A DNA stretch of 12,610 nucleotides from a virus. Its lineage: Duplodnaviria; Heunggongvirae; Uroviricota; Caudoviricetes. The position numbers and the translations under genes were made by a program. Location of the stretch: the IMG/VR virus record IMGVR_UViG_2630968712_000015; one strand, 5' to 3'. Position 1 is the stretch's first letter, and each line of letters opens with the position of its first letter. The notes beneath the pieces are model-generated. The model made no database searches. It saw nothing but the letters and a program-made list of their open reading frames with translations, and had not been told where the DNA came from. Shown here in pieces: positions 1 to 12,610 of the stretch.

Positions 1-60
1 ATGAGGTTTGGGTACATTGCTTTGGGTACACCCCCTATTCAAAGTTTGGATATTCGCAAA

Positions 61-1320
61 ATGCCAAAACTAACAGACATGCAGATCCGCGCATGGATTA
101 AGAGCGGAGAGCGATTCGAGGGGCGGGCAGACGGTAACGGTTTATACCTACGTTACCGTGAAGCCGACAAAACCCCCACATGGAGATTCCGCTATAAACT
201 CGCAGGGAAGTCCCGCGCCATGCTAATTGGTTCGTATAGCGAGCTATCACTATCAAAGGCCAGAGAGACAGCCAAAGAGCTATCGGCTCGCGTTGCGCTG
301 GGCTATGACGTTGCAGGAGAGAAGCAGAAGCACAAAACCGAAGCACTGGCGAAGATGGAAGCAGAGAAGAACGCTATGCGCGTTTCAGAGCTTGCCGCTG
401 AATACTTTGAGCGTCAGATCCTCCCGCGCTGGAAGCACCCCGATATACTCCGCCGCCGTATCGACAAAGATATAAACCCCTGCATTGGCAGCATGAAGGT
501 AGAGGACGTGAAACCGCGCCATATCGATGACATGCTGAAAGGTATTGTTGACCGTGGAGCGCCGACCATAGCAACGGACGTGCTGAGATGGACGCGCCGC
601 ATATTCGACTACGGAATCAAACGGCACGCGCTAGAGATTAACCCCTGTTCAGCCTTTGAGGTGGCAGACGCCGGAGGGAAAGAAGCTGCCCGTGACCGCT
701 GGTTAACCCGCGATGAGTTAATCCAGCTATTCAAAGCCATGCGCACGGCTAAGGGATTCAGTCGCCAGAACGAAATCACGTTCAAATTACTGTTAGCGTT
801 ATGCGTCCGCAAAATGGAATTATGCGCCGCACGATGGGAAGAGTTTGATTTAGATGGTGCGGTATGGCATTTGCCGGAAGAACGCAGCAAAAACGGAGAC
901 CCTATTGATATACCTCTACCTTCCCCAGCCGTTGAATGGTTGAGAGAGCTACACACCTTTTCATGTAATAGCGCATGGGTGCTTCCGGCCAGGAAGATGC
1001 AAAACAGAATGATCCCACATATTCAGGAAAGCACTTTACCCGTAGCACTGGCTAAGGTTCGCGCCGAAATGCCGGATGTGCCTAATTTCACGATTCACGA
1101 CTTTCGACGCACCGCACGTACTCATTTAGCAGCGTTGGGTGTTGATCCTGTTGTGGCGGAACGATGCCTCAATCATCGCATTAAGGGCGTAGAGGGGATT
1201 TATAACCGCCATCAGTATTTTGATGAGCGTAAAGCAGCACTGGCACAGTGGGCTGATCTGCTAGTGGCACTGGAAAGCGGAAAAGACTACAACGTAACGC
1301 CTCTCAGAAGGGCGAACTAA
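61..1320 (+). CDS. int: Tyrosine recombinase / site-specific integrase, P4 family. The ORF is open from nt 1 at the window edge; the likely start is ATG 61 (MPKLTDMQIR...).
   Basis: N-terminus LTDxxIR...GLYL...WRFRY typical of P4-type integrases; C-terminal catalytic region with HDFRRTARTHL and GIYNRHQYFDERK (His-x-x-Arg and catalytic Tyr). Length 419 aa from ATG 61. Confidence 0.9.
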   Translation: MPKLTDMQIRAWIKSGERFEGRADGNGLYLRYREADKTPTWRFRYKLAGKSRAMLIGSYSELSLSKARETAKELSARVALGYDVAGEKQKHKTEALAKMEAEKNAMRVSELAAEYFERQILPRWKHPDILRRRIDKDINPCIGSMKVEDVKPRHIDDMLKGIVDRGAPTIATDVLRWTRRIFDYGIKRHALEINPCSAFEVADAGGKEAARDRWLTRDELIQLFKAMRTAKGFSRQNEITFKLLLALCVRKMELCAARWEEFDLDGAVWHLPEERSKNGDPIDIPLPSPAVEWLRELHTFSCNSAWVLPARKMQNRMIPHIQESTLPVALAKVRAEMPDVPNFTIHDFRRTARTHLAALGVDPVVAERCLNHRIKGVEGIYNRHQYFDERKAALAQWADLLVALESGKDYNVTPLRRAN

Positions 1321-1415
1321 CTGAATAGATTGAGCCTAGCTCGACGGGGCGAAAAGCGGGAAGCCTTACCGCCTGGCTCAATCACAAAATAAGGCGCAGC
1401 GTAAAAGGTGACGCA

Positions 1416-1715
1416 ATGAAAAAATTACCACCCGCCCCTTTTTTCAGGCTTAACAGAGCAGCCGAATTATTAGAAATAGATATTGATGATCTTTTGATTA
1501 TGGCGGCGGCAGAATCTATATATTTGAGCGCGTACCTTTGCGGCTACGACGGCACATTACATAGCATCGCGAGTCTTTACCGCAATTGCTCTTTATTCCC
1601 AGACGTCAAAGAAGACTGCTTATTACTTGCCGACATAATCACTGAAGTAGAGGACGAAAAAAGCTTTAAGGCAGGCGTTGTAAATCATATAGATTGCCAT
1701 GTGCTTGGGCGGTAA
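1416..1715 (+). pseudogene. 5' fragment of an unknown gene interrupted by IS1. Native codons end at 1710; the TAA at 1713-1715 is supplied by the IS1 terminal repeat.
   Basis: ORF with SD-like AAAGGTG upstream of ATG 1416. The reading frame continues exactly into 2488..3041 once IS1 and one copy of the 9-bp duplication are removed (…NHIDCHVLG|LWHVNASY…). Confidence 0.65.
1702..1710. repeat. IS1 target-site duplication, left copy (TGCTTGGGC)
   Basis: Identical 9-mer TGCTTGGGC immediately flanks both ends of the IS1 (1702-1710 and 2479-2487). Confidence 0.9.
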
Positions 1716-1725
1716 TGACTCCAAC

Positions 1726-2229
1726 TTACTGATAGTGTTTTATGTTCAGATAATGCCCGATGACCTTGTCATGCAGCTCCACCGATTTTGAGAACGACAG
1801 TGACTTCCGTCCCAGCCTTGCCAGATGTTGTCTCAGATTCAGATTATGTCGCTCAATGCGCTGAGTGTAACGCTTGCTGATAACGTGCAGCTTTCCCTTC
1901 AGGCGTGATTCATACAGCGGCCAGCCATCCGTCATCCATACCACGACCTCAAAGGCCGACAGCAGGCTCAGAAGACGCTCCAGTGTGGCCAGAGTGCGTT
2001 CACCGAAGACGTGCGCCACAACCGTCCTCCGTATCCTGTCATACGCGTAAAACAGCCAGCGCTGACGTGATTTAGCACCGACGTAGCCCCACTGTTCGTC
2101 CATTTCAGCGCAGACAATCACATCACTGCCCGGTTGTATGCGCGAGGTTACCGACTGCGGCCTGAGTTTTTTAAGTGACGTAAAACCGTGTTGAGGCCAA
2201 CGCCCATAATGCGTGCACTGGCGCGACAT
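1726..2229 (-). CDS. insB: IS1 transposase InsB (expressed as an InsAB' fusion by -1 frameshift)
   Basis: 167-aa product ...[58 protein letters not shown]... matches IS1 InsB as recalled. Confidence 0.9.
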
Positions 2230-2423
2230 CCGACGCCATTCATGGCCATATCAATGATTTTCTGGTGCGTACCGGGCTGAGAGGCGGTGTAAGTGAACTG
2301 TAGTTGCCATGTTTTACGGCAATGAGAGCAGAGATAGCGCTGATGTCCGGCAGTGCTTTTGCCGTTACGCACCACGCCTTCAGTAGCGGAGCAGGAAGGA
2401 CATCTGATGGAAATGGAAGCCAC
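2148..2423 (-). CDS. insA: IS1 InsA (zinc-finger/HTH transposition inhibitor)
   Basis: 91-aa product [68 protein letters not shown]... is a near-identical IS1 InsA isoform. Confidence 0.9.
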
Positions 2424-2478
2424 GCAAGCACCTTAAAATCACCATCATACACTAAATCAGTAAGTTGGCAGCATTACC

Positions 2479-2487
2479 TGCTTGGGC
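2479..2487. repeat. IS1 target-site duplication, right copy (TGCTTGGGC)
   Basis: Exact 9-bp copy of 1702-1710, directly abutting the IS1 right terminal repeat. Confidence 0.9.
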
Positions 2488-3041
2488 TATGGCATGTTAA
2501 CGCCTCCTATATACTCGACATCGCAGGGCTTGATTCTATTGACACTCCCGCACGCATATTCAGCCCCGCACACAGAAAAAGAGAACTAGACGTAAGTGCG
2601 AATTATTATTTTTTTCTCGATTATACAAAACATGCCTTCCACGAAATATCCGTAGAGGATTTGTACATAACAAGGCCGTGGGTTGAATATATCGGCGAAT
2701 GCATGGACAAAAACCAGCCCATATACAGCCCCGAAACTCGCATAAACTTACAAGCTCTTTATGAGGATGTTAAAAACGTTGAGCACGGAAACAGAGAGCG
2801 CCACAGGCAAAAGCGCGAAATTTGCCTCTTGGCGTTGATTTATGTGAAGCGGCACTACCCAGAAGAGTGTAAAGGGAAGAACGGGAAGGAAACCAACGAA
2901 GCATGGGCGAACGCCACAATAAACCACTGGGCGCTTTTGGGGGGCGGCTATGATGAGCCATCCATAGATTACCTGAAGAAACTCATAGCCGACGCAGACA
3001 GAACACCGGAAGAACGCACCACGGCAGGGAAAAAAAGGTGA
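2488..3041 (+). pseudogene. 3' fragment of the IS1-interrupted gene; the reconstructed intact product is about 282 aa of unknown function
   Basis: Frame continuity with 1416..1710 after removing IS1 and one TSD copy. The upstream part of the six-frame ORF 2304..3041 is read-through across the IS1 end, not native coding sequence. Confidence 0.65.
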
Positions 3042-3069
3042 TAGTAAATTTTACTATCACGATAGTAAA
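3040..3069. promoter_or_regulatory. Operator-like site: three alternating 9-bp half-sites GATAGTAAA / TTTACTATC / GATAGTAAA, about 85 bp upstream of alpA
   Basis: Perfect 19-bp palindrome 3040-3058 (GATAGTAAA-T-TTTACTATC) followed by a third direct copy of GATAGTAAA at 3061-3069, in the intergenic region before the AlpA-like gene. Confidence 0.4.
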
Positions 3070-3153
3070 AAATACGATCATTCCTTTTTGAGCGTGCACG
3101 CCATTAAATCCCCGTAACGAAGCAACAACTATCGCTAAGAGGTTACGGGAATC

Positions 3154-3357
3154 ATGAACATCGACACTATCCCTACAAAAGGCTATATCAGACGCTTCCG
3201 CCTGGCTGAATTGCTGGGCGTTAGTGTATCCACCATCGACCGTAAAGTAAGAAACGGTTCACTACCACGTCCGGTAAAGCTGGGAGAAAAAATAACTGCG
3301 TTTGATGCGGTTGAGATTCACAACTGGCTGGCAGAACGCCGCGGGAAGGTGGCCTGA
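3154..3357 (+). CDS. alpA: AlpA/Vis-family small HTH transcriptional regulator (prophage excisionase-like)
   Basis: 67 aa; ...FRLAELLGVSVSTIDRKVRNGSLPRPVKLGEKITAFDAVEIHNWL... matches the AlpA-family signature; SD AAGAGG upstream of the ATG; sits beside the integrase as in P4-like elements. Confidence 0.85.
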   Translation: MNIDTIPTKGYIRRFRLAELLGVSVSTIDRKVRNGSLPRPVKLGEKITAFDAVEIHNWLAERRGKVA

Positions 3358-4786: not shown

Positions 4787-5480
4787 ACCTGCCGCCCAGA
4801 AAGAAGCCTTTAATCTGGCTGGCCTGTTAACAAATGTTAACCCTTACAACCTTATAAAACCTGATATTGATACCGCAGCGCCCGGAGTTCCGTTACCAGT
4901 ACGCGAGGCGCTTACCCTCAACAAAAAGATGGTGAGCCGTGCACAGGAAAAACTCTTAAAGGGTTACGGTTTTATCTGGTATGACCACCTAGCAGAGAAA
5001 AGCTGTTATAGTTCAAGCGTTGCTGCAAAATCAGCAACCGGGCGTGGAAACCCGAACACACTCAGGGCGACACAGACGCCGAAAGCGTTTTTTTTTGTGT
5101 CCGATCACTACGCACATCAAATCAGCGGCCTAGTCCGTACTGTATCAATGGTGGCGTTAGTGGGGCTACGTTCGCGTAGGCCGGTTTCCTTTGTGTCCGG
5201 TATTTCCACCCCTGCTAACGTCACCGCCATTTCAGAGCGTGGAAACTCAGGCGGTGACTCCTTAAACACAAAGGAGGCTGCCGCTATGCTGGCTACTACC
5301 CCTACCCAAAAACCGCAATTTATCTGGATTATCGCCGCAGTTCGCCGCGATTGCCCGACAATTACCGCCAAAATTCATCATATTGCTGCCGAGTCTGAAC
5401 GCGATGCTCGCCGTTCTCTGGTGCGCGATCACGTCTGCTTTTTTGCTGGTCGTATCCGCATGGAGGTGGCACATGATTAA
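4773..5480 (+). CDS. Hypothetical ORF; coding status uncertain. Possible GTG start 4773 (ATG alternatives at 4752 or 4725); a strong internal SD+ATG at 5286 suggests the real gene may be only 5286..5480 (64 aa).
   Basis: GGAGGTG at 4762-4768 precedes GTG 4773; the first ~75 codons look protein-like, but 5018-5285 is hairpin-rich and uses rare codons (CTA, AGG). AAGGAGG at 5271-5277 sits 8 nt before in-frame ATG 5286. Confidence 0.35.
   Translation: MILNEPAAQKEAFNLAGLLTNVNPYNLIKPDIDTAAPGVPLPVREALTLNKKMVSRAQEKLLKGYGFIWYDHLAEKSCYSSSVAAKSATGRGNPNTLRATQTPKAFFFVSDHYAHQISGLVRTVSMVALVGLRSRRPVSFVSGISTPANVTAISERGNSGGDSLNTKEAAAMLATTPTQKPQFIWIIAAVRRDCPTITAKIHHIAAESERDARRSLVRDHVCFFAGRIRMEVAHD
5075..5096 (+). 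terminator. Possible intrinsic terminator or attenuator: short GC stem-loop followed by a run of nine T
   Basis: GACGC-CGAAA-GCGTT followed by T9 (5088-5096). The stem is only 4-5 bp, so this is weak. Confidence 0.25.
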
Positions 5481-6356: not shown

Positions 6357-6951
6357 TTTCTTAACGTTCCATGCAGAAGCAACGCCTGGCGGCGTAAACA
6401 TCATGTACCGCAGCAACGATGGCATGACAGAACGCGTTGAGACCGTCTCATATATTGATGCCGTAAATCGTCTGGATGCCGGGGATTATGACGATAAACC
6501 AGATGAAGGCATGTTTATACATCTCGCTATTGCCAGTGGCGGCAACCAGGGATATTTCGATTACACATCACAGCATCACGTGATTATGTGGCGCTGGCTG
6601 ATCGCAACAGTATTCATGCTGGAAATGAGAGAGGAAAACGGCACTGTCAGCATCATTGATGATACTGGCAATCCTTCCGAAGTGGCTGTTTATTCCAACG
6701 GCATCGTCGCCATGCCGCTGTATCCAGTAGCAGAGCGCCTCGCTATGGCAAACAACATTGAGGGCGCGATGATAGAACGTTTTGGCATCGAGTCTGGCAC
6801 AGAACGCGCCATCATTTTCTACAGAGCCATGATGGATGTGGAACAAGGAGCACTGACTCCATTTGGTCGTGAAACGCTTGCTGAACTTCACAACAGCTTT
6901 ATAGCTGAACTGAATGAAAACGGCTGGCCTGAAATGGCGCTGGCGCACTGA
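6349..6951 (+). CDS. Hypothetical protein (200 aa from ATG 6349; the six-frame ORF opens at 6244)
   Basis: ATG 6349 overlaps the stop of the preceding gene; GAGGCG SD-like sequence upstream; followed 9 nt later by the next gene. Confidence 0.55.
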   Translation: MNNFLTFHAEATPGGVNIMYRSNDGMTERVETVSYIDAVNRLDAGDYDDKPDEGMFIHLAIASGGNQGYFDYTSQHHVIMWRWLIATVFMLEMREENGTVSIIDDTGNPSEVAVYSNGIVAMPLYPVAERLAMANNIEGAMIERFGIESGTERAIIFYRAMMDVEQGALTPFGRETLAELHNSFIAELNENGWPEMALAH

Positions 6952-6959
6952 GGGGCGAC

Positions 6960-7301
6960 ATGATTACTAAAAATTTCCGACTGAATGCGCTGGCGAATAA
7001 GTATGCGGCAGCACTGTATAACCACATTACTTCCACCAGCGGCGGGGACTATTTCATGATTGATGCGGACGGCCTCGCCGTCCGTGTGGAAATCGTCAAT
7101 GGAGTAAAAGGCGTTCGCAGCCTGATTGATAGCTACGCACTGGCAGCCATGAAAGTGCGCTACCCGCAGTGGGAAATCGTGGGGATCGAGCTTCTTGATC
7201 GTTGCGTCACTAAGGACGGATTGACTGACATCGGGCGCGAGATATGGCAAAGCATGATTAATGATATGGGCGCGACCGTGGCAGGAGGCAACCATGCGTA
7301 A
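6960..7301 (+). CDS. Hypothetical protein (113 aa) immediately upstream of the primase, translationally coupled to it
   Basis: GAGGGG SD before ATG 6960; stop overlaps the primase start (ATGCGTAA). Confidence 0.55.
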   Translation: MITKNFRLNALANKYAAALYNHITSTSGGDYFMIDADGLAVRVEIVNGVKGVRSLIDSYALAAMKVRYPQWEIVGIELLDRCVTKDGLTDIGREIWQSMINDMGATVAGGNHA

Positions 7302-10053
7302 TATCGACCTTATCCGCGAAGTGACCAGCGCCGCAGCAGGGCGCTGGCCTTATGTGCTGGCTGAATTGTCTATCGACGTGCCTGATTCATCGCGCCGCCA
7401 TTCTCCATGCCCTGCATGTGGTGGAAAAGACCGTTTCAGATTCGACGACAACGGGCGCGGTAGCTTTATCTGCAACCAGTGTGGCGCTGGTGACGGGCTG
7501 GATTTAATCAAGCGGGTAAACAACTGCGACACCACGGAGGCGGCACAGCTTGCCGCTGACGTGCTGGGTATTGATTACCGGGCAGCGCAAACCGACCCGG
7601 CGGCAGCGAGCCATAGAAGAGAGCAACTGGAAGCTGACCGCCAGCAGCGTGAGCAGGAGCGCCAGAAACAGGCAGCAGAGGACGCAGAGCAGCGAAGGGC
7701 TACGTTTGCCCATCTGTATGCCGGAATGCGCCAGAGTGCCACACAGGGCGAATCTGATTACCTGCAATCAAAAGGGCTGACCGGGTTTAACTATCCGGTT
7801 ATGCCGGATGGTTCGTTATTGCTGGAGCTGGTGGACGAATCCGGCGCAGTGGCAGCAGCGCAAACCATTACACCGCAGGGAGAGAAGCGACTCCTGACAG
7901 GTTCAGCAAAGCGCGGGGCATATCACGCCGTAAACGCGCCAGAATCGCCGCAGAGCGTTTTAATTGCCGAGGGGCTGGCGACGGCCCTTTCAGTTCACCT
8001 GATGCGCCCGGACGCGCTGGCAGTGGCAGCAATTGACGCGGGCAACCTGCTACCCGTTGCCGAAGTGATGCGCCGGATATATCCCGCCACGCAGATTATC
8101 ATTGCCGCAGATAACGACCACCAGCAGGACGACCAGGCGAACACGGGCAAAGATGCCGCAGAGAAAGCCGCCTTATCCGTGGCTGGCTGGGTGGCGCTGC
8201 CGCCGACAGACTACAAAGCCGACTGGGACGACTACCGCCAGCAAAACGGGCTGGAAGTCGCTACGGCTGCGTTTAACGATTCGATGTACCAGATTCAAGG
8301 GGAAGCCGTGAAACCGCGATTGCAAGCCATTGAGGGCGGTAAAACTGACCATCCAGAGAAAGATCCACTAAAACCCCACATTGAGAGCCGCAAAGATAGC
8401 GTTTTCTGGGTAACGCCGAAGGTGGACAAGGAAAGCGGGGAGATCGTCAACGCTGAAAGCTGGTTATGTTCCCCGTTGGAGGTTATCGGCACGGGACGCG
8501 ACGACAAAGATCAGTATCTTATTATCTCATGGCTGGCATTCGGTGCAGGCATACCGACAACAGCGGCTATCCCGCTGGCTGATATTGGCGAGCGTGAAGG
8601 CTGGCGCACCCTGAAAGCTGGTGGGGTTAACGTCACGACCAAAAGCAGTTTACGGGCGATCCTTGCCGACTGGCTACAGCGGAGCGGCTCGCGTGAATTG
8701 TGGCGCGTTGCTCATGCTACAGGCTGGCAGTGCGGGGCATACATCATGCCGGACGGGGAAATCATCGGCACACCTGAGCGGCCTGTTTTGTTCAGCGGGC
8801 GCAGTTCAGCCGCTGCCGGGTATACCGTAGCAGGAACGCCGGAAAGCTGGCGCAACAGTGTCGCGCGGCTGGCATACGGCAACTACGCGATGATGACAGG
8901 CATTGCCGCAGCACTGGCAGCGCCATTAATCGGGGTGGCAGAGCGTGACGGATTCGGGATTCATTTTTATGAGCAATCGAGCGCCGGGAAAACAACCACG
9001 CAGAACGTGGCTAGCAGTCTATACGGGAACCCTGATGCCTTGCGCCTGACGTGGTACGGGACGGCGCTGGGGATGATAAACGAGGCCGCCGCCCACAATG
9101 ACGGACTGATGCCGCTGGATGAAGTCGGACAGGGCGCAGACCCGATAAGCGTTTCTCAGTCTGCCTATGCCCTGTTTAACGGCGTAGGGAAATTGCAGGG
9201 CGCGAAAGAAGGCGGAAATCGGGATCTAAAACGCTGGCGTACCGTGGCAATCAGCACCGGGGAAATGGATTTAGAAACGTTCATTGCCTCCGCAGGACGC
9301 AAGACAAAAGCGGGGCAACTGGTGCGCCTGCTGAATATCCCGTTAAGTAAGGCGGTGCGCTTTCATGAGCACCAGACAGGGAAAGACCATGCAGACGCAT
9401 TAAAATCCGCGTGGCAGAGCAATCACGGCGCTGCCGGGCGGGAGTGGATCAGATGGCTTGCAGGCCACCAGCAGCAGGCCATTGATACCGTTCGTGACTG
9501 TGAAGCCCGCTGGCGCAGTCTTATTCCTGCCGACTATGGGGAACAGGTTCACCGTGTAGGGGCAAGGTTCGCCATTCTGGAGGCTGCTTTACTGCTGGGT
9601 GGCGTGGTTACTGGCTGGGATGATCAAACGTGCCGTGATGCGATACAGCACAGCTACAATGCGTGGTTGCGTGAGTTCGGCACGGGGAACAAAGAGCACC
9701 AGCAGATTATTGAGCAGACGGAGGCGTTTTTGAATGCCTATGGGCTGAGTCGATTCGCGCCGCTGGGTTATGACCCGCGCGATTTACCCATCCGTGATTT
9801 AGCCGGGTACAGGAAGAAGGGGAACCACGACGGCGACCCGATAATTTTCTACACCTTCCCGGCAGCGTTTGAGCAGGAGATTGCAAAGGGCTTCAATACC
9901 AAACAGTTTGCCGAAGTTCTAAAGAATGCAGGAATGCTTACACCACCAACGAGCGGGCGAGGCTATCAGGGGCGAGTAAGGGAGGATGGGCGACAGATTC
10001 GCGTCTATGTACTCAATTTCATGGCAGAGGAAAGCAGCCAGCCAGAAGAATAA
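7294..10053 (+). CDS. Primase-helicase (P4 alpha-like replication protein): N-terminal primase zinc ribbon, Toprim domain, C-terminal P-loop NTPase/helicase domain
   Basis: Perfect AGGAGG SD before ATG 7294; CPACGGKDRFRFDDNGRGSFICNQCG zinc ribbon; Toprim-like AEGLATALS...IIIAADNDH; Walker A SSAGKTT and Walker B LMPLDEVG; 919 aa. Confidence 0.9.
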   Translation: MRNIDLIREVTSAAAGRWPYVLAELSIDVPDSSRRHSPCPACGGKDRFRFDDNGRGSFICNQCGAGDGLDLIKRVNNCDTTEAAQLAADVLGIDYRAAQTDPAAASHRREQLEADRQQREQERQKQAAEDAEQRRATFAHLYAGMRQSATQGESDYLQSKGLTGFNYPVMPDGSLLLELVDESGAVAAAQTITPQGEKRLLTGSAKRGAYHAVNAPESPQSVLIAEGLATALSVHLMRPDALAVAAIDAGNLLPVAEVMRRIYPATQIIIAADNDHQQDDQANTGKDAAEKAALSVAGWVALPPTDYKADWDDYRQQNGLEVATAAFNDSMYQIQGEAVKPRLQAIEGGKTDHPEKDPLKPHIESRKDSVFWVTPKVDKESGEIVNAESWLCSPLEVIGTGRDDKDQYLIISWLAFGAGIPTTAAIPLADIGEREGWRTLKAGGVNVTTKSSLRAILADWLQRSGSRELWRVAHATGWQCGAYIMPDGEIIGTPERPVLFSGRSSAAAGYTVAGTPESWRNSVARLAYGNYAMMTGIAAALAAPLIGVAERDGFGIHFYEQSSAGKTTTQNVASSLYGNPDALRLTWYGTALGMINEAAAHNDGLMPLDEVGQGADPISVSQSAYALFNGVGKLQGAKEGGNRDLKRWRTVAISTGEMDLETFIASAGRKTKAGQLVRLLNIPLSKAVRFHEHQTGKDHADALKSAWQSNHGAAGREWIRWLAGHQQQAIDTVRDCEARWRSLIPADYGEQVHRVGARFAILEAALLLGGVVTGWDDQTCRDAIQHSYNAWLREFGTGNKEHQQIIEQTEAFLNAYGLSRFAPLGYDPRDLPIRDLAGYRKKGNHDGDPIIFYTFPAAFEQEIAKGFNTKQFAEVLKNAGMLTPPTSGRGYQGRVREDGRQIRVYVLNFMAEESSQPEE

Positions 10054-10080
10054 TTATTTCTTCACATGCGTAGTTTTAGT

Positions 10081-10254
10081 GTTGTCTCGGTTGTCTTTGT
10101 TGTCTCAATTTGTAATTGAGATTGATTTATAAGGATTTTATTTTAATTTCTGAGACAACACCGAGACAACATTTAGCCATTTTGAGACAACAGGGCGAAA
10201 GTGTGTTTTTAGTCTGGCAGGCAGTGAGACAACATTTATGCCGGGTGAGACAAC
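10081..10254. repeat. Iteron array: three inverted GTTGTCTC/T copies at 9-bp spacing, an AT-rich spacer, then five direct TGAGACAACA copies phased at 11/21/42/21 bp; putative replication origin or cis replication region
   Basis: GTTGTCTC at 10081, GTTGTCTT at 10090, GTTGTCTC at 10099; AT-rich 10107-10150; GAGACAAC at 10152, 10163, 10184, 10226, 10247; located directly 3' of the primase-helicase gene. Confidence 0.6.
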
Positions 10255-10343
10255 ACTATTTTTGCTTACTATGAAAAAAAATCGGCAGGTGTCCCACATT
10301 AAGAAATCGTCATTAGCAAAACTAATAATCCAGTGAGGGGAAA

Positions 10344-10778
10344 ATGACAGCACAAATTTCAGCATACGGGCGGCTGGTGGCAGATCCCCAGACCCGCACC
10401 ACAACGAACGGTAACAACATGGCTATGGCGCGGCTGGCGGTGTCTCTCCCCTGTAATGCGGCAGAGGCGGGAGAGTCAACCTTCTGGCTGGGCGTTATTG
10501 CTTTTGGGAAGCAGGCCGATGCGCTGGCAAAGCACCAGAAAGGCGACCTTGTGAGCGTGGCAGGCAATATGCAACTCAACCAGTGGACAGGGCAGGACGG
10601 CGGTACACAGCAGGGGTATCAGGTAGTAGCCGACAGTGTGATCAGCGCCAGAACGGTACGCCCCGGCGGGAAGGCAGGACAGCGGGGACAGGCAACGGAC
10701 GCGCTGAGACGTGCGCAGCAGCCATCCCGTGATGAATACGACCAAAGCCCACCATTCGACGATGAAACGCCATTCTGA
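10344..10778 (+). CDS. ssb: Single-stranded DNA-binding protein (SSB-like, 144 aa) with acidic C-terminal tail
   Basis: GAGGGG SD before the ATG; OB-fold-like pattern (GRLVADPQ...NG...A.ARLAV...FW..VIAFGKQA...KGD.V.V.G.....W); C-terminal ...PPFDDETPF resembles the SSB acidic tip (DDDIPF in E. coli SSB). Confidence 0.7.
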   Translation: MTAQISAYGRLVADPQTRTTTNGNNMAMARLAVSLPCNAAEAGESTFWLGVIAFGKQADALAKHQKGDLVSVAGNMQLNQWTGQDGGTQQGYQVVADSVISARTVRPGGKAGQRGQATDALRRAQQPSRDEYDQSPPFDDETPF

Positions 10779-10788
10779 GAGGGAAGAT

Positions 10789-11340
10789 ATGAGTACGCAA
10801 CCCATCATTATTGAGTTCGGCAGCTATCGCTGGCCCAGACATCTTGCAATACATGAAGCAGGTCATGCGATAGCCGCATGGTTTTTCGGCATACAGGAGG
10901 TAGAAATTGCGTTATCGGGTAATAACCGAGTGGCAAAAACCTACCTTAGCGGCGATGTTGATGAATGTGGAGCTGTCGCGGTATGGCACGCCAACTATCC
11001 ACGGAATGTGGCTGAGGTTAAGTCTTACACCCTCTCGAATGATGACACCAGGTTACGTCTGATAGACCAGGTATGCCGGGCTATGGTTATCTCTCTGGCT
11101 GGTATCGTCGCGCAATCACGCTATACGGGGGATGATATTAACGCACTGATGGAAACGTCCGGGAAAGCAGACATGAAAAATGTTCGTGATTTATCAGAGG
11201 TATACCGGGTGGCTGGTGGGGAGGATGCTGATATACAGAGAATATCCCTTTCCCGTGCTGAGGCGCTGATTGCCCTGAAATGGTGGGATGTAGACTGGCC
11301 CCCTGAATCTCCAGACAACCAGTATCACTTAAATAAGTGA
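10789..11340 (+). CDS. Stand-alone FtsH-like (peptidase M41-type) zinc metalloprotease-domain protein; the native 3' end is replaced by IS2 from nt 11291 (last 16 codons and the stop are IS2-encoded)
   Basis: True start ATG 10789 after the ssb stop (the six-frame ORF start at 10711 lies inside ssb). [13 protein letters not shown] matches the FtsH HEAGH zinc-binding motif, with downstream regions paralleling the FtsH protease domain; no AAA+ domain upstream. Confidence 0.55.
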
Positions 11341-11381
11341 TAGTCTTAATACTAGTTTTTAGACTAGTCATTGGAGTACAG

Positions 11382-11747
11382 ATGATTGATGTCTTAGGGC
11401 CGGAGAAACGCAGACGGCGTACCACACAGGAAAAGATCGCAATTGTTCAGCAGAGCTTTGAACCGGGGATGACGGTCTCCCTCGTTGCCCGGCAACATGG
11501 TGTAGCAGCCAGCCAGTTATTTCTCTGGCGTAAGCAATACCAGGAAGGAAGTCTTACTGCTGTGGCCGCCGGAGAACAGGTTGTTCCTGCCTCTGAACTT
11601 GCTGCCGCCATGAAGCAGATTAAAGAACTCCAGCGCCTGCTCGGCAAGAAAACGATGGAAAATGAACTCCTCAAAGAAGCCGTTGAATATGGACGGGCAA
11701 AAAAGTGGATAGCGCACGCGCCCTTATTGCCCGGGGATGGGGAGTAA
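11382..11747 (+). CDS. insC: IS2 InsC (OrfA, HTH transposase component), 121 aa from ATG 11382
   Basis: [56 protein letters not shown]... matches IS2 OrfA; GGAG SD upstream. The six-frame track start at 11337 is a GTG inside the IS2 terminal repeat. Confidence 0.9.
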
Positions 11748-12610
11748 GCTTAGTCAGCCGTTGTCTCCGGGTGTCGCGTGCGCAGTTGCACGTCATTCTC
11801 AGACGAACCGATGACTGGATGGATGGCCGCCGCAGTCGTCACACTGATGATACGGATGTGCTTCTCCGTATACACCATGTTATCGGAGAGCTGCCCACGT
11901 ATGGTTATCGTCGGGTATGGGCGCTGCTTCGCAGACAGGCAGAACTTGATGGTATGCCTGCGATCAATGCCAAACGTGTTTACCGGATCATGCGCCAGAA
12001 TGCCCTGTTGCTTGAGCGAAAACCTGCTGTACCACCATCGAAACGGGCACATACAGGCAGAGTGGCCGTGAAAGAAAGCAATCAGCGATGATGCTCTGAC
12101 GGGTTCGAGTTCTGCTGTGATAACGGAGAGAGACTGCGTGTCACGTTCGCGCTGGACTGCTGTGATCGTGAGGCACTGCACTGGGCGGTGACTACCGGCG
12201 GCTTCAACAGTGAAACAGTACAGGACGTCATGCTGGGAGCGGTGGAACGCCGCTTCGGCAACGATCTTCCGTCGTCTCCAGTGGAGTGGCTGACGGATAA
12301 TGGTTCATGCTACCGGGCTAATGAAACACGCCAGTTCGCCCGGATGTTGGGACTTGAACCGAAGAACACGGCGGTGCGGAGTCCGGAGAGTAACGGAATA
12401 GCAGAGAGCTTCGTGAAAACGATAAAGCGTGACTACATCAGTATCATGCCCAAACCAGACGGGTTAACGGCAGCAAAGAACCTTGCAGAGGCGTTCGAGC
12501 ATTATAACGAATGGCATCCGCATAGTGCGCTGGGTTATCGCTCGCCACGGGAATATCTGCGGCAGCGGGCTTGTAATGGGTTAAGTGATAACAGATGTCT
12601 GGAAATATAG
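11705..12610 (+). pseudogene. insD: IS2 InsD (OrfB, DDE transposase catalytic domain) interrupted by an in-frame TGA at 12089-12091 where a Trp codon is expected
   Basis: The two six-frame ORFs 11705..12091 and 12188..12610 are in the same frame with no other stop between them; [25 protein letters not shown] versus ESNQRWCSDGFEF in IS2 InsD as recalled. Confidence 0.75.

Follow-up and report, generated by a model that had tools for sequence, protein, structure and literature searches.

An ssb gene and an M41-like protease gene at the edge of the replication zone of a probable Gram-negative PICI-type island

The DNA studied here, 12,610 nucleotides (nt) of a virus assigned to the Caudoviricetes (IMG/VR record IMGVR_UViG_2630968712_000015; hereafter the window, meaning this whole stretch), carries a gene for a single-stranded DNA-binding protein (SSB) and, immediately downstream, a gene with the HEAGH motif of an M41-like protease. 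The original prediction, made from the sequence alone, treated the two genes (ssb and the protease gene) as a pair and suggested that they may be a replication accessory module or a two-gene cargo system of a P4-type satellite. This raises the question of whether the two genes belong together or merely adjoin. Judged by their occurrence in related islands, ssb and the protease gene do not appear to be a dedicated pair, and the co-conservation that such a pair calls for is largely lacking. We found that ssb is an ordinary, already described replication gene of Gram-negative satellites of the phage-inducible chromosomal island (PICI) type. In the reading that we consider probable, ssb ends the replication zone of the island, and the protease gene is a rare cargo gene of the variable zone whose usual partner encodes an exported protein.

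Conservation of ssb and the protease gene in related islands

When we used the window ssb as a blastn query against 5426 complete E. coli genomes, we found related genes in 1765 of them, at 2288 places that are almost all chromosomal. The protease gene is present in 28 genomes of the same set, 26 of which carry it intact and always contiguous with ssb; ssb without the protease gene is about 60 times commoner than the protease gene (1765 vs 28 genomes). In every island that we sampled (eight), ssb follows a gene for a primase or a RepA helicase, often past one or two small open reading frames (ORFs), and is itself followed by a variable zone. Among these related loci (given as L numbers), L002, L016 and L029-L032 show ssb in this position after the primase gene. 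The first gene past ssb encodes PerC in L002, L031 and L032, capsid genes take this place in L029 and L030, and in L016, an island embedded in the terminase gene of an O157:H7 prophage, a capsid-protease fusion opens the zone after ssb. The spacing between ssb and the protease gene is 8-10 nt in L001, L003, L007, L011 and L017; in the window it is 10 nt, not the 11 bp first given, with the protease ATG at 10789. In L031 and L032, PerC starts 10 nt past the ssb stop codon, the same spacing as that of the protease gene in the window; the close spacing thus belongs to the slot itself.

We judged conservation of the pair over 16 distinct contexts of the protease gene. In 8 of the 16, ssb lies directly upstream. 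Three others have one gene inserted between the two, encoding a ProQ/FinO-like protein (Pectobacterium, L006), a 331-amino-acid (aa) helix-turn-helix (HTH) protein (Dickeya, L014) or PerC (L024), and one has the order reversed (L020: primase, protease, p374, ssb). No ssb stands beside the protease gene in the other four (L005, L021, L022/23 and Salmonella L026-28). The identities (%) of SSB, the protease and p116 (the exported neighbour described below) to the window or L001 proteins are 76/93/83 in L003, 72/94/87 in L004, 89/69/93 in L017 and 63/73/84 in L011. In one E. coli class, the protease gene is 98% identical at the nucleotide level and ssb 76%, and there is therefore a recombination breakpoint between both genes in that class. 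With adjacency in half of the contexts, ssb absent from a quarter and discordant identities, the ssb/HEAGH pair largely fails the check on conservation and co-variation that had been proposed for it. That the two genes adjoin is probably due for the most part to the variable region beginning at this point.

The SSB protein and the island that encodes it

The product of ssb ends in ...SPPFDDETPF, as read from its translation. Pfam SSB (PF00436) recognises the protein at 5.6e-17 (62.1 bits vs a cut-off of 26), NCBIfam TIGR00621 scores it at 57.5 bits, above its cut-off of 53.95, and phrog_44 ('single strand DNA binding protein') matches it at 3.2e-34. Its sequence also matched 26 SSBs of solved structure, with 7r4w at the top (2.6e-11) in an alignment that extends through the acidic tip (DDEPPF in 7r4w), and the E. 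coli SSB structure 1eyg matches at 1.1e-7. With a family-level score over the oligonucleotide-binding (OB) domain and the acidic tip both present, the protein is by sequence a true SSB, which confirms the original prediction on this point, and an OB fold is predicted from the matches to solved SSBs. The protein scores far under every housekeeping 'equivalog' SSB model; ssb is an island-borne paralogue, not the host SSB gene.

Pfam matches to the primase are DUF927 (4.6e-48), Zn_Ribbon_Prim (1.3e-15) and Toprim_3 (5.2e-14). Past the primase stop codon, a repeat search found five direct copies of the iteron GAGACAAC(A) at 10151-10255 and at least two inverted copies (three by eye) at 10081-10107. 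These repeats suggest that the array acts as a replication origin, and ssb begins 88 nt past it, so its placement directly after a putative iteron origin stands. The segment from 6460 to 10256, with the primase gene and iterons, is 93% identical in nucleotides to island L002, and the segment from 10344 to 11291, which holds ssb and the protease gene, matches island L001 at 99.8% identity; L001 differs by another primase C-terminal half and by a 100-aa ORF where the window has iterons. A recombination breakpoint lies within 10256-10344 of the window. The window is a mosaic in which ssb and the protease gene travelled as one block, and breakpoints are known on either side of ssb. None of the complete E. 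coli genomes in our set matches, by itself, at least 80% of 10000-11292.

Gram-negative PICIs and helper-embedded PICIs are laid out in integration, Bro, replication and late zones, and the replication zone lists 'Primase, SSB and DUF5906' together with mapped origins (PMC10111431). This listing and the 1765 E. coli genomes with a related ssb remove the premise that an ssb of their own is generally missing from descriptions of such satellites. Uninterrupted relatives of the island sit between yicC and dinD, and their gene order is a tyrosine integrase and an AlpA-like HTH gene; AntA/AntB, DUF4222 and Icd-like genes; the primase gene; iterons and ssb; and a short variable region ending with a PRiA4_ORF3 gene. 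In the window, we found the features of both the integration zone and the replication zone of a Gram-negative PICI. The Bro zone is represented by the AntA/AntB and Icd-like genes annotated in relatives and by the C4/isrK RNAs in the window; all four Rfam matches exceed their gathering scores, and the C4 set comprises P4 CI-type immunity RNAs in a Bro/Icd-like region. Because int, the int-alpA RNA, the AlpA-like HTH, AntA/AntB, C4/isrK, the primase, the iterons and ssb stand in that order, the window is likely to carry a Gram-negative PICI-type phage satellite. The window's own late zone was lost to the insertion sequence IS2; in that of L001 and L002 no capsid or terminase gene is annotated, and L017 carries a DUF2280 gene. 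The P4 genes sid, delta and psu were neither annotated nor found among the ORFs of the window and the intact relatives, as judged without a dedicated hidden Markov model search; the P4-type assignment gives way to the layout of a Gram-negative PICI. EcCIMP1, a similar E. coli PICI with PerC, is mobilised by a helper (PMC11773190).

The coordinates of the features in the window and in the related loci are given in Table 1. The spacing between ssb and the protease gene suggests that the two are co-transcribed; promoter and terminator scans around both genes gave no more sites than shuffled controls. The proposal of a replication accessory module holds for ssb, while the protease gene lies outside it.

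Table 1. Features of the window and of cassettes in related loci (positions in the window unless a locus is named).
Feature	Position	Strand	Basis and remarks
Tyrosine integrase gene	1-1320		Pfam; inward-facing
int-alpA RNA	1329-1395	+	Rfam, 60.6 bits
AlpA-like HTH candidate	3154-3357		67-aa ORF; in a stretch ~86% identical to the L001 segment with the annotated HTH regulator
c4-a1b1, isrK and C4 antisense RNA	5006-5231	+	Rfam; 54.2, 70.1 and 80.3 bits
Island primase gene	7261-10053	+	930 aa; zinc ribbon, Toprim, DUF927; opens the replication zone
Putative origin	10081-10255	.	Repeat search; direct and inverted iterons, AT-rich spacer between the sets
ssb	10344-10778	+	ATG ORF, 144 aa; family-model and solved-structure matches
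Layout of the ssb product			Predicted OB domain, ~residues 1-105; short Gly/Gln/Arg/Pro-rich linker; acidic tip DDETPF
Spacer	10779-10788	+	10 nt between the ssb stop and the protease ATG; holds GAGGGAAG, the protease ribosome-binding site
Truncated protease gene	10789-11291	+	Codons 1-167 of 213 (5' 78%); predicted stand-alone M41-type zinc metalloprotease
IS2	11291-12610	+	Left inverted repeat to near the right end; annotation of matches and homology break
p356-family genes	L012:8757-9827; L014:8718-9788; L020:6387-7511; L024:1968-2726		
Three-gene cassettes	L026:6268-7345 (Salmonella enterica, yicC); L005:2306-3436; L021:3-1253		Upstream ORF, protease, secreted ~110-aa protein

The M41-like protease and its interruption by IS2

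The start codon of the protease gene has GAGGGAAG just 5' of it. A 209-aa ORF with a GTG start at 10711, taken from a mechanical list, was rejected as the true protease start; it overlaps ssb and is without homologue support. When we searched the complete E. coli genomes by megablast, we found 99.8% identity from the ssb ATG up to 11291 and none beyond. At 11291 the window sequence turns into TAGACTGGCCCC, beginning TAGACTGGCCCCCTGAATCTCC..., which we take to be the left inverted repeat of IS2, and the sequence from this point has thousands of matches annotated 'IS3-like element IS2 family transposase'. The window presumably ends about 11 nt short of the right end of IS2. Thus the original prediction was right that the downstream context is lost to IS2; the insertion itself sits inside the protease gene, not downstream of an intact gene, and about 49 nt of the span 10344-11340, which had been given as the module, are IS2. 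Codons 168-183 of the listed protease ORF (16 codons and the stop) are also IS2 sequence. The intact protease in strain 19-5 (locus L001) has 213 aa, and the window copy is without the last 46 residues, among them IALAKILENR, where conservation within the family is highest. Because IS2 removes this conserved C-terminal stretch and everything downstream, the protease and its cassette in the window are, to judge from the sequence, dead. The junction of the protease gene with IS2 is absent from all 5426 genomes searched. IS2 makes the window copy unusable for functional work, and intact copies exist, for example in E. coli 19-5 (NZ_CP047010, 4419543-4420976, within an intact island at 4410413-4422738).

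The HEAGH motif occupies residues 22-26 of the protease, and D128 lies within TSGKADM. When 32 relatives, some as little as 20% identical, were aligned, we found H22, E23, A24, H26, G105, A108, D128 and A172 to be invariant, residues that we take to correspond to the HEAGHA, GGRxAE and TGAxxD motifs of FtsH. In crystal structures of FtsH, the Asp of TGAxxD serves as third ligand of the zinc, and D128 is assigned by analogy, giving the HExxH and downstream Asp of M41 with D128 as putative third ligand. An AlphaFold2 model, built on an alignment of homologues headed by a sequence that shares 98% identity with the L001 protein, has a pLDDT of 77.8 and a pTM of 0.81. When this model was compared with the PDB by Foldseek, the top 24 matches were all protease domains of FtsH, AFG3L2, YME1 and FtsHi, at a sequence identity of the protease to FtsH of just 14-21%. 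A profile-profile comparison with distant relatives included aligned residues 146-205 of the family to residues 546-605 of E. coli FtsH (probability 92%, E 5e-7); hhalign with a narrow profile of close homologues aligned the 17-residue HEAGH helix only (FtsH 410-426), and a search of PDB sequences with the close-homologue profile found no FtsH. Among the extended relatives, 10 of 32 reach Pfam Peptidase_M41 unaided, the best at 1e-13. The window protease itself has nothing over threshold in Pfam, NCBIfam, PHROGs or PADLOC. It begins 16 residues ahead of the HEAGH helix, with no AAA domain found and no membrane module. Together, the model and the homologues that reach Pfam M41 point to an M41 (FtsH)-like fold, and the M41-like guess made from the motif holds at this level. 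The protein thus appears to behave as an M41 domain but departs from it in two respects, in scoring under the Pfam threshold and in having no AAA+ or membrane module fused to it.

Close homologues of the protease form 23 clusters at 90% identity, from Escherichia, Klebsiella, Enterobacter, Buttiauxella, Atlantibacter, Serratia, Dickeya and Pectobacterium; two further records are labelled Pseudomonas and Chryseobacterium, with gene content that looks enterobacterial, making these labels doubtful. Full-length homologues of 211-220 aa come from at least eight genera at 62-98% identity. A profile search of 1.84 billion representatives gave 63 matches at E <= 1e-3, and the 18 that we read are from about 200 to 478 aa long, none with an AAA+ module; the 63 are all either short or equipped with a different N-terminus. 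A tblastn search of 50,697 phages and 72,556 plasmids gave no match to the protease, and our literature search found no stand-alone M41 protease for phages or defence. We read the protease gene as rare cargo because it occurs in 28 of the 5426 genomes, matches no phage or plasmid and has 63 representatives among 1.84 billion.

Three distant relatives (P0065, P0066 and P0071; 402-478 aa) have the M41-like HEAGH domain fused to an extra N-terminal region. Their N-termini match a PHROG tail assembly protein (gpI-like) and the N-terminus of the central tail fibre J; Pfam gave no confirmation of the resemblance to lambda tail assembly protein I. These matches hint, as a lead only, that part of the wider protease family acts in a phage-tail context.

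A second insertion sequence may be present just past the integrase gene. Minus-strand ORFs of 167 aa and 91 aa at 1726-2423, which we take by eye to be IS1 InsB and InsA, belong to an element at about 1726-2493, apparently between a 99-aa ORF (1416-1715) and a 245-aa frame (2304-3041). The surrounding segment (1428-3113) has no match in islands L001 and L002. This by-eye recognition of IS1 suggests that there are two insertion sequences in the window.

Exported neighbours of the protease, rival explanations and known systems

The question of what lies past the IS2 insertion point is answered by the intact relatives, which carry an exported-protein gene (p116 or p356) next to the protease gene. 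The p116 family follows the protease gene in eight contexts; its members have 105-116 aa, two conserved cysteines and a Sec signal peptide (by eye), and we propose that p116 is a secreted beta-barrel of about 116 aa. The start of p116 usually overlaps the protease stop codon (ATGA), and the linkage holds as far as the Salmonella copy, where the protease is 186 aa long and 32% identical. In Klebsiella and Serratia, short sequences past the protease stop were read by eye as remnants of the p116 start. The p356 family stands in the place of p116 in four contexts (Serratia, Dickeya and two metagenomic contigs); its members, of 356-374 aa with a lipoprotein-type signal (by eye), are 36-67% identical to one another and have no match in Pfam or PADLOC. 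Thus the recurrent partner of the protease appears from its sequence to be an exported protein, encoded nearly always by the next gene. In three p116-bearing contexts (L005, L021 and L026), with no ssb or primase gene beside the cassette, an ORF of 58-62 aa precedes the protease gene; its copies are 44-56% identical and were read by eye as ribbon-helix-helix-like.

In L011, the segment between the primase gene and ssb (L011:4436-6989) encodes a YejK/NA37 nucleoid-associated-protein homologue and a 494-aa protein with, by eye, a hydrophobic C-terminus; the ssb of this locus appears 5'-truncated or frameshifted. These two proteins, neither of which has a PADLOC match, could be another cargo pair of the 'after pri' kind. 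A 189-aa gene downstream in the same locus has no phage homologue. We also considered whether the protease or a neighbour is a Tai defence gene and rejected this; TaiSalA (181 aa, phage FSL SP-016) is without similarity to the protease, p116, p356 and the other genes in the loci that we examined.

If ssb ends the replication zone, as we think probable, its product would, on the model of bacterial SSBs, form a tetramer that coats the single-stranded DNA laid bare as the island's primase-helicase opens the iteron origin, and repair and replisome proteins of the host would be drawn in by the acidic tip DDETPF. The protease gene would lie outside the replication module, at the head of the variable zone that follows directly on ssb. 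Its product would be a soluble zinc endopeptidase with an HExxH...D site that is intact in the family; having neither an AAA+ unfoldase nor a membrane anchor, it would therefore be limited to unfolded, disordered or specifically docked substrates. It would be paired with an exported protein, either the ATGA-coupled p116 or the lipoprotein of about 356 aa, and away from ssb the protease and its partner would move with their own small upstream ORF. Its position suggests, tentatively, that this cassette is satellite cargo in the conflict between phage, satellite and host, acting in interference with a helper or competing phage or in exclusion. With similar reserve, we raise the possibility that the upstream ORF, the AAA-less M41 protease and the exported beta-barrel or lipoprotein make up an unrecognised mobile conflict system in the 'after pri' hotspot, of which the window holds a copy inactivated by IS2. 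Such a system might serve anti-phage defence, superinfection exclusion or helper interference, with a cytoplasmic protease and an envelope partner, a role to which we give an equally guarded place. Of the functions considered for the protease, we infer that conflict cargo is the best choice, ahead of an anti-repressor, an FtsH mimic or a partnership with SSB.

Several observations weigh against parts of this account. The window protease scores 12.3 bits (E 0.15) on Pfam M41 (PF01434), under the cut-off of 29.9; Pfam has no match for the 58-62-aa upstream ORF, whose ribbon-helix-helix label was given by eye; and neither ssb nor the protease, p116, p356 and the genes beside them match anything in PADLOC-DB 2.0, leaving position to suggest a role in conflict. 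The late zone of the relatives has no recognisable packaging genes, and the layout of the island is what points to a mobilisable satellite. As for the two genes themselves, two inserted cargo genes in L011 part ssb, the protease gene and p116 from the primase gene; half of the protease contexts have ssb immediately 5' at 8-10 nt; and the breakpoint of the window lies upstream of ssb, so that both genes were exchanged together as one 99.8%-identical block, and some functional link is possible. The last two points also favour a dedicated module in which adjacency is selected, for example because the protease trims the SSB tail or an SSB-bound protein. Such a module would fit with the four more contexts in which ssb is within one gene of the protease gene, the contiguity of all 26 intact E. 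coli copies and the expectation that an ATPase-less protease would favour disordered substrates, as the SSB linker and tail are. Yet ssb is some 60 times more frequent than the protease gene, PerC occupies the equivalent slot at an identical 10-nt spacing, and four protease contexts do without ssb, three of them with the small upstream ORF instead. Together with the insertions and the reversed order, the discordant identities and the breakpoint between the genes in one E. coli class, this makes a dedicated module quite improbable. A regulatory switch, in which the protease would act as an anti-repressor in the manner of ImmA and respond to a signal by cutting a repressor (the small upstream protein or a different one), so that the cassette or the island is derepressed, seems to us unlikely. 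The homologous small ORF directly upstream of the protease gene in three independent contexts gives a layout that parallels ImmR/ImmA of ICEBs1 and Xre/COG2856 pairs, in which a DNA-binding protein is encoded beside an HExxH protease. Against this, the ORF is absent from the ssb-linked contexts, the window's family included, and has no Pfam match, Pfam searches gave no sequence relation of the protease to M78/ImmA, and a switch leaves the constant exported partner unexplained.

That partner is equally unexplained if the protease co-assembles with the host FtsH hexamer or competes against it, shifting the turnover of FtsH substrates (lambda CII/CIII, for example) and thereby the choice of a helper between lysis and lysogeny. 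The predicted fold is that of the FtsH protease domain, C-terminal helices included, as a mimic would require; but the low identity to FtsH (14-21%) and an invariant catalytic site that favours an enzyme in its own right over a passive mimic make this very unlikely. The explanation to which we give the least credence makes the HEAGH ORFs either products of chance or remnants that have decayed and lost catalysis. The window copy is cut by IS2, two E. coli genomes carry 5'-truncated copies, and no model in Pfam, NCBIfam, PHROGs or PADLOC matches over threshold. For the family as a whole this is already contradicted by the full-length homologues in at least eight genera, by the invariance of H22, E23, H26 and D128 over the 32 aligned sequences and by the confident predicted fold.

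For annotation, ssb beside the iteron origin and primase gene marks the end of a PICI-type replication zone and is neither cargo nor an oddity. The protease represents a small, satellite-restricted family of FtsH-type domains without ATPase and is a useful lead in the intact relatives. The protease and exported-protein cassette is uncharacterised, and the modest interest of the locus resides there and not in the adjacency of ssb and protease gene. If the cassette does act in defence or interference, an M41-fold protease would join the known repertoire and would offer a tractable model of an FtsH protease domain without an unfoldase.

The genes discussed here can be set beside several known systems. 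The ssb product shares an OB domain, a disordered linker and an acidic D-D-x-x-P-F tip with bacterial homotetrameric SSB of the E. coli type, which is 178 aa long; the island protein is shorter (144 aa), with a much shorter linker and the tip DDETPF in place of DDDIPF. The order of genes from int to ssb is common to the window island and to Gram-negative PICIs up to the replication zone; unlike in capsid PICIs, neither capsid nor terminase genes are recognisable downstream of ssb in the family of islands at yicC-dinD. A P4-type C4 RNA is shared with P4-like satellites, but the window primase has a DUF927 C-terminal half and is not of the P4 alpha type. With ImmR/ImmA there would be a likeness of layout only; the protease fold is M41-like and not M78, and the upstream ORF is by eye ribbon-helix-helix-like and not HTH. 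With the M41 domains of FtsH, AFG3L2 and YME1, the protease shares the HEAGHA helix, the LAGxxAE motif and the invariant Asp in a GxxD motif. In contrast to FtsH, which has 644 aa with an AAA+ ATPase and a transmembrane and periplasmic part, the protease has 213 aa and none of these, and it is encoded by a satellite beside an exported partner. In PICIs, the immune or accessory region adjacent to pri is home to the Tai tail-assembly-inhibition genes (PMC11364771). Tai has reported anti-phage activity, and the HEAGH cassette, although unrelated to Tai by sequence, occupies the equivalent position downstream of pri.

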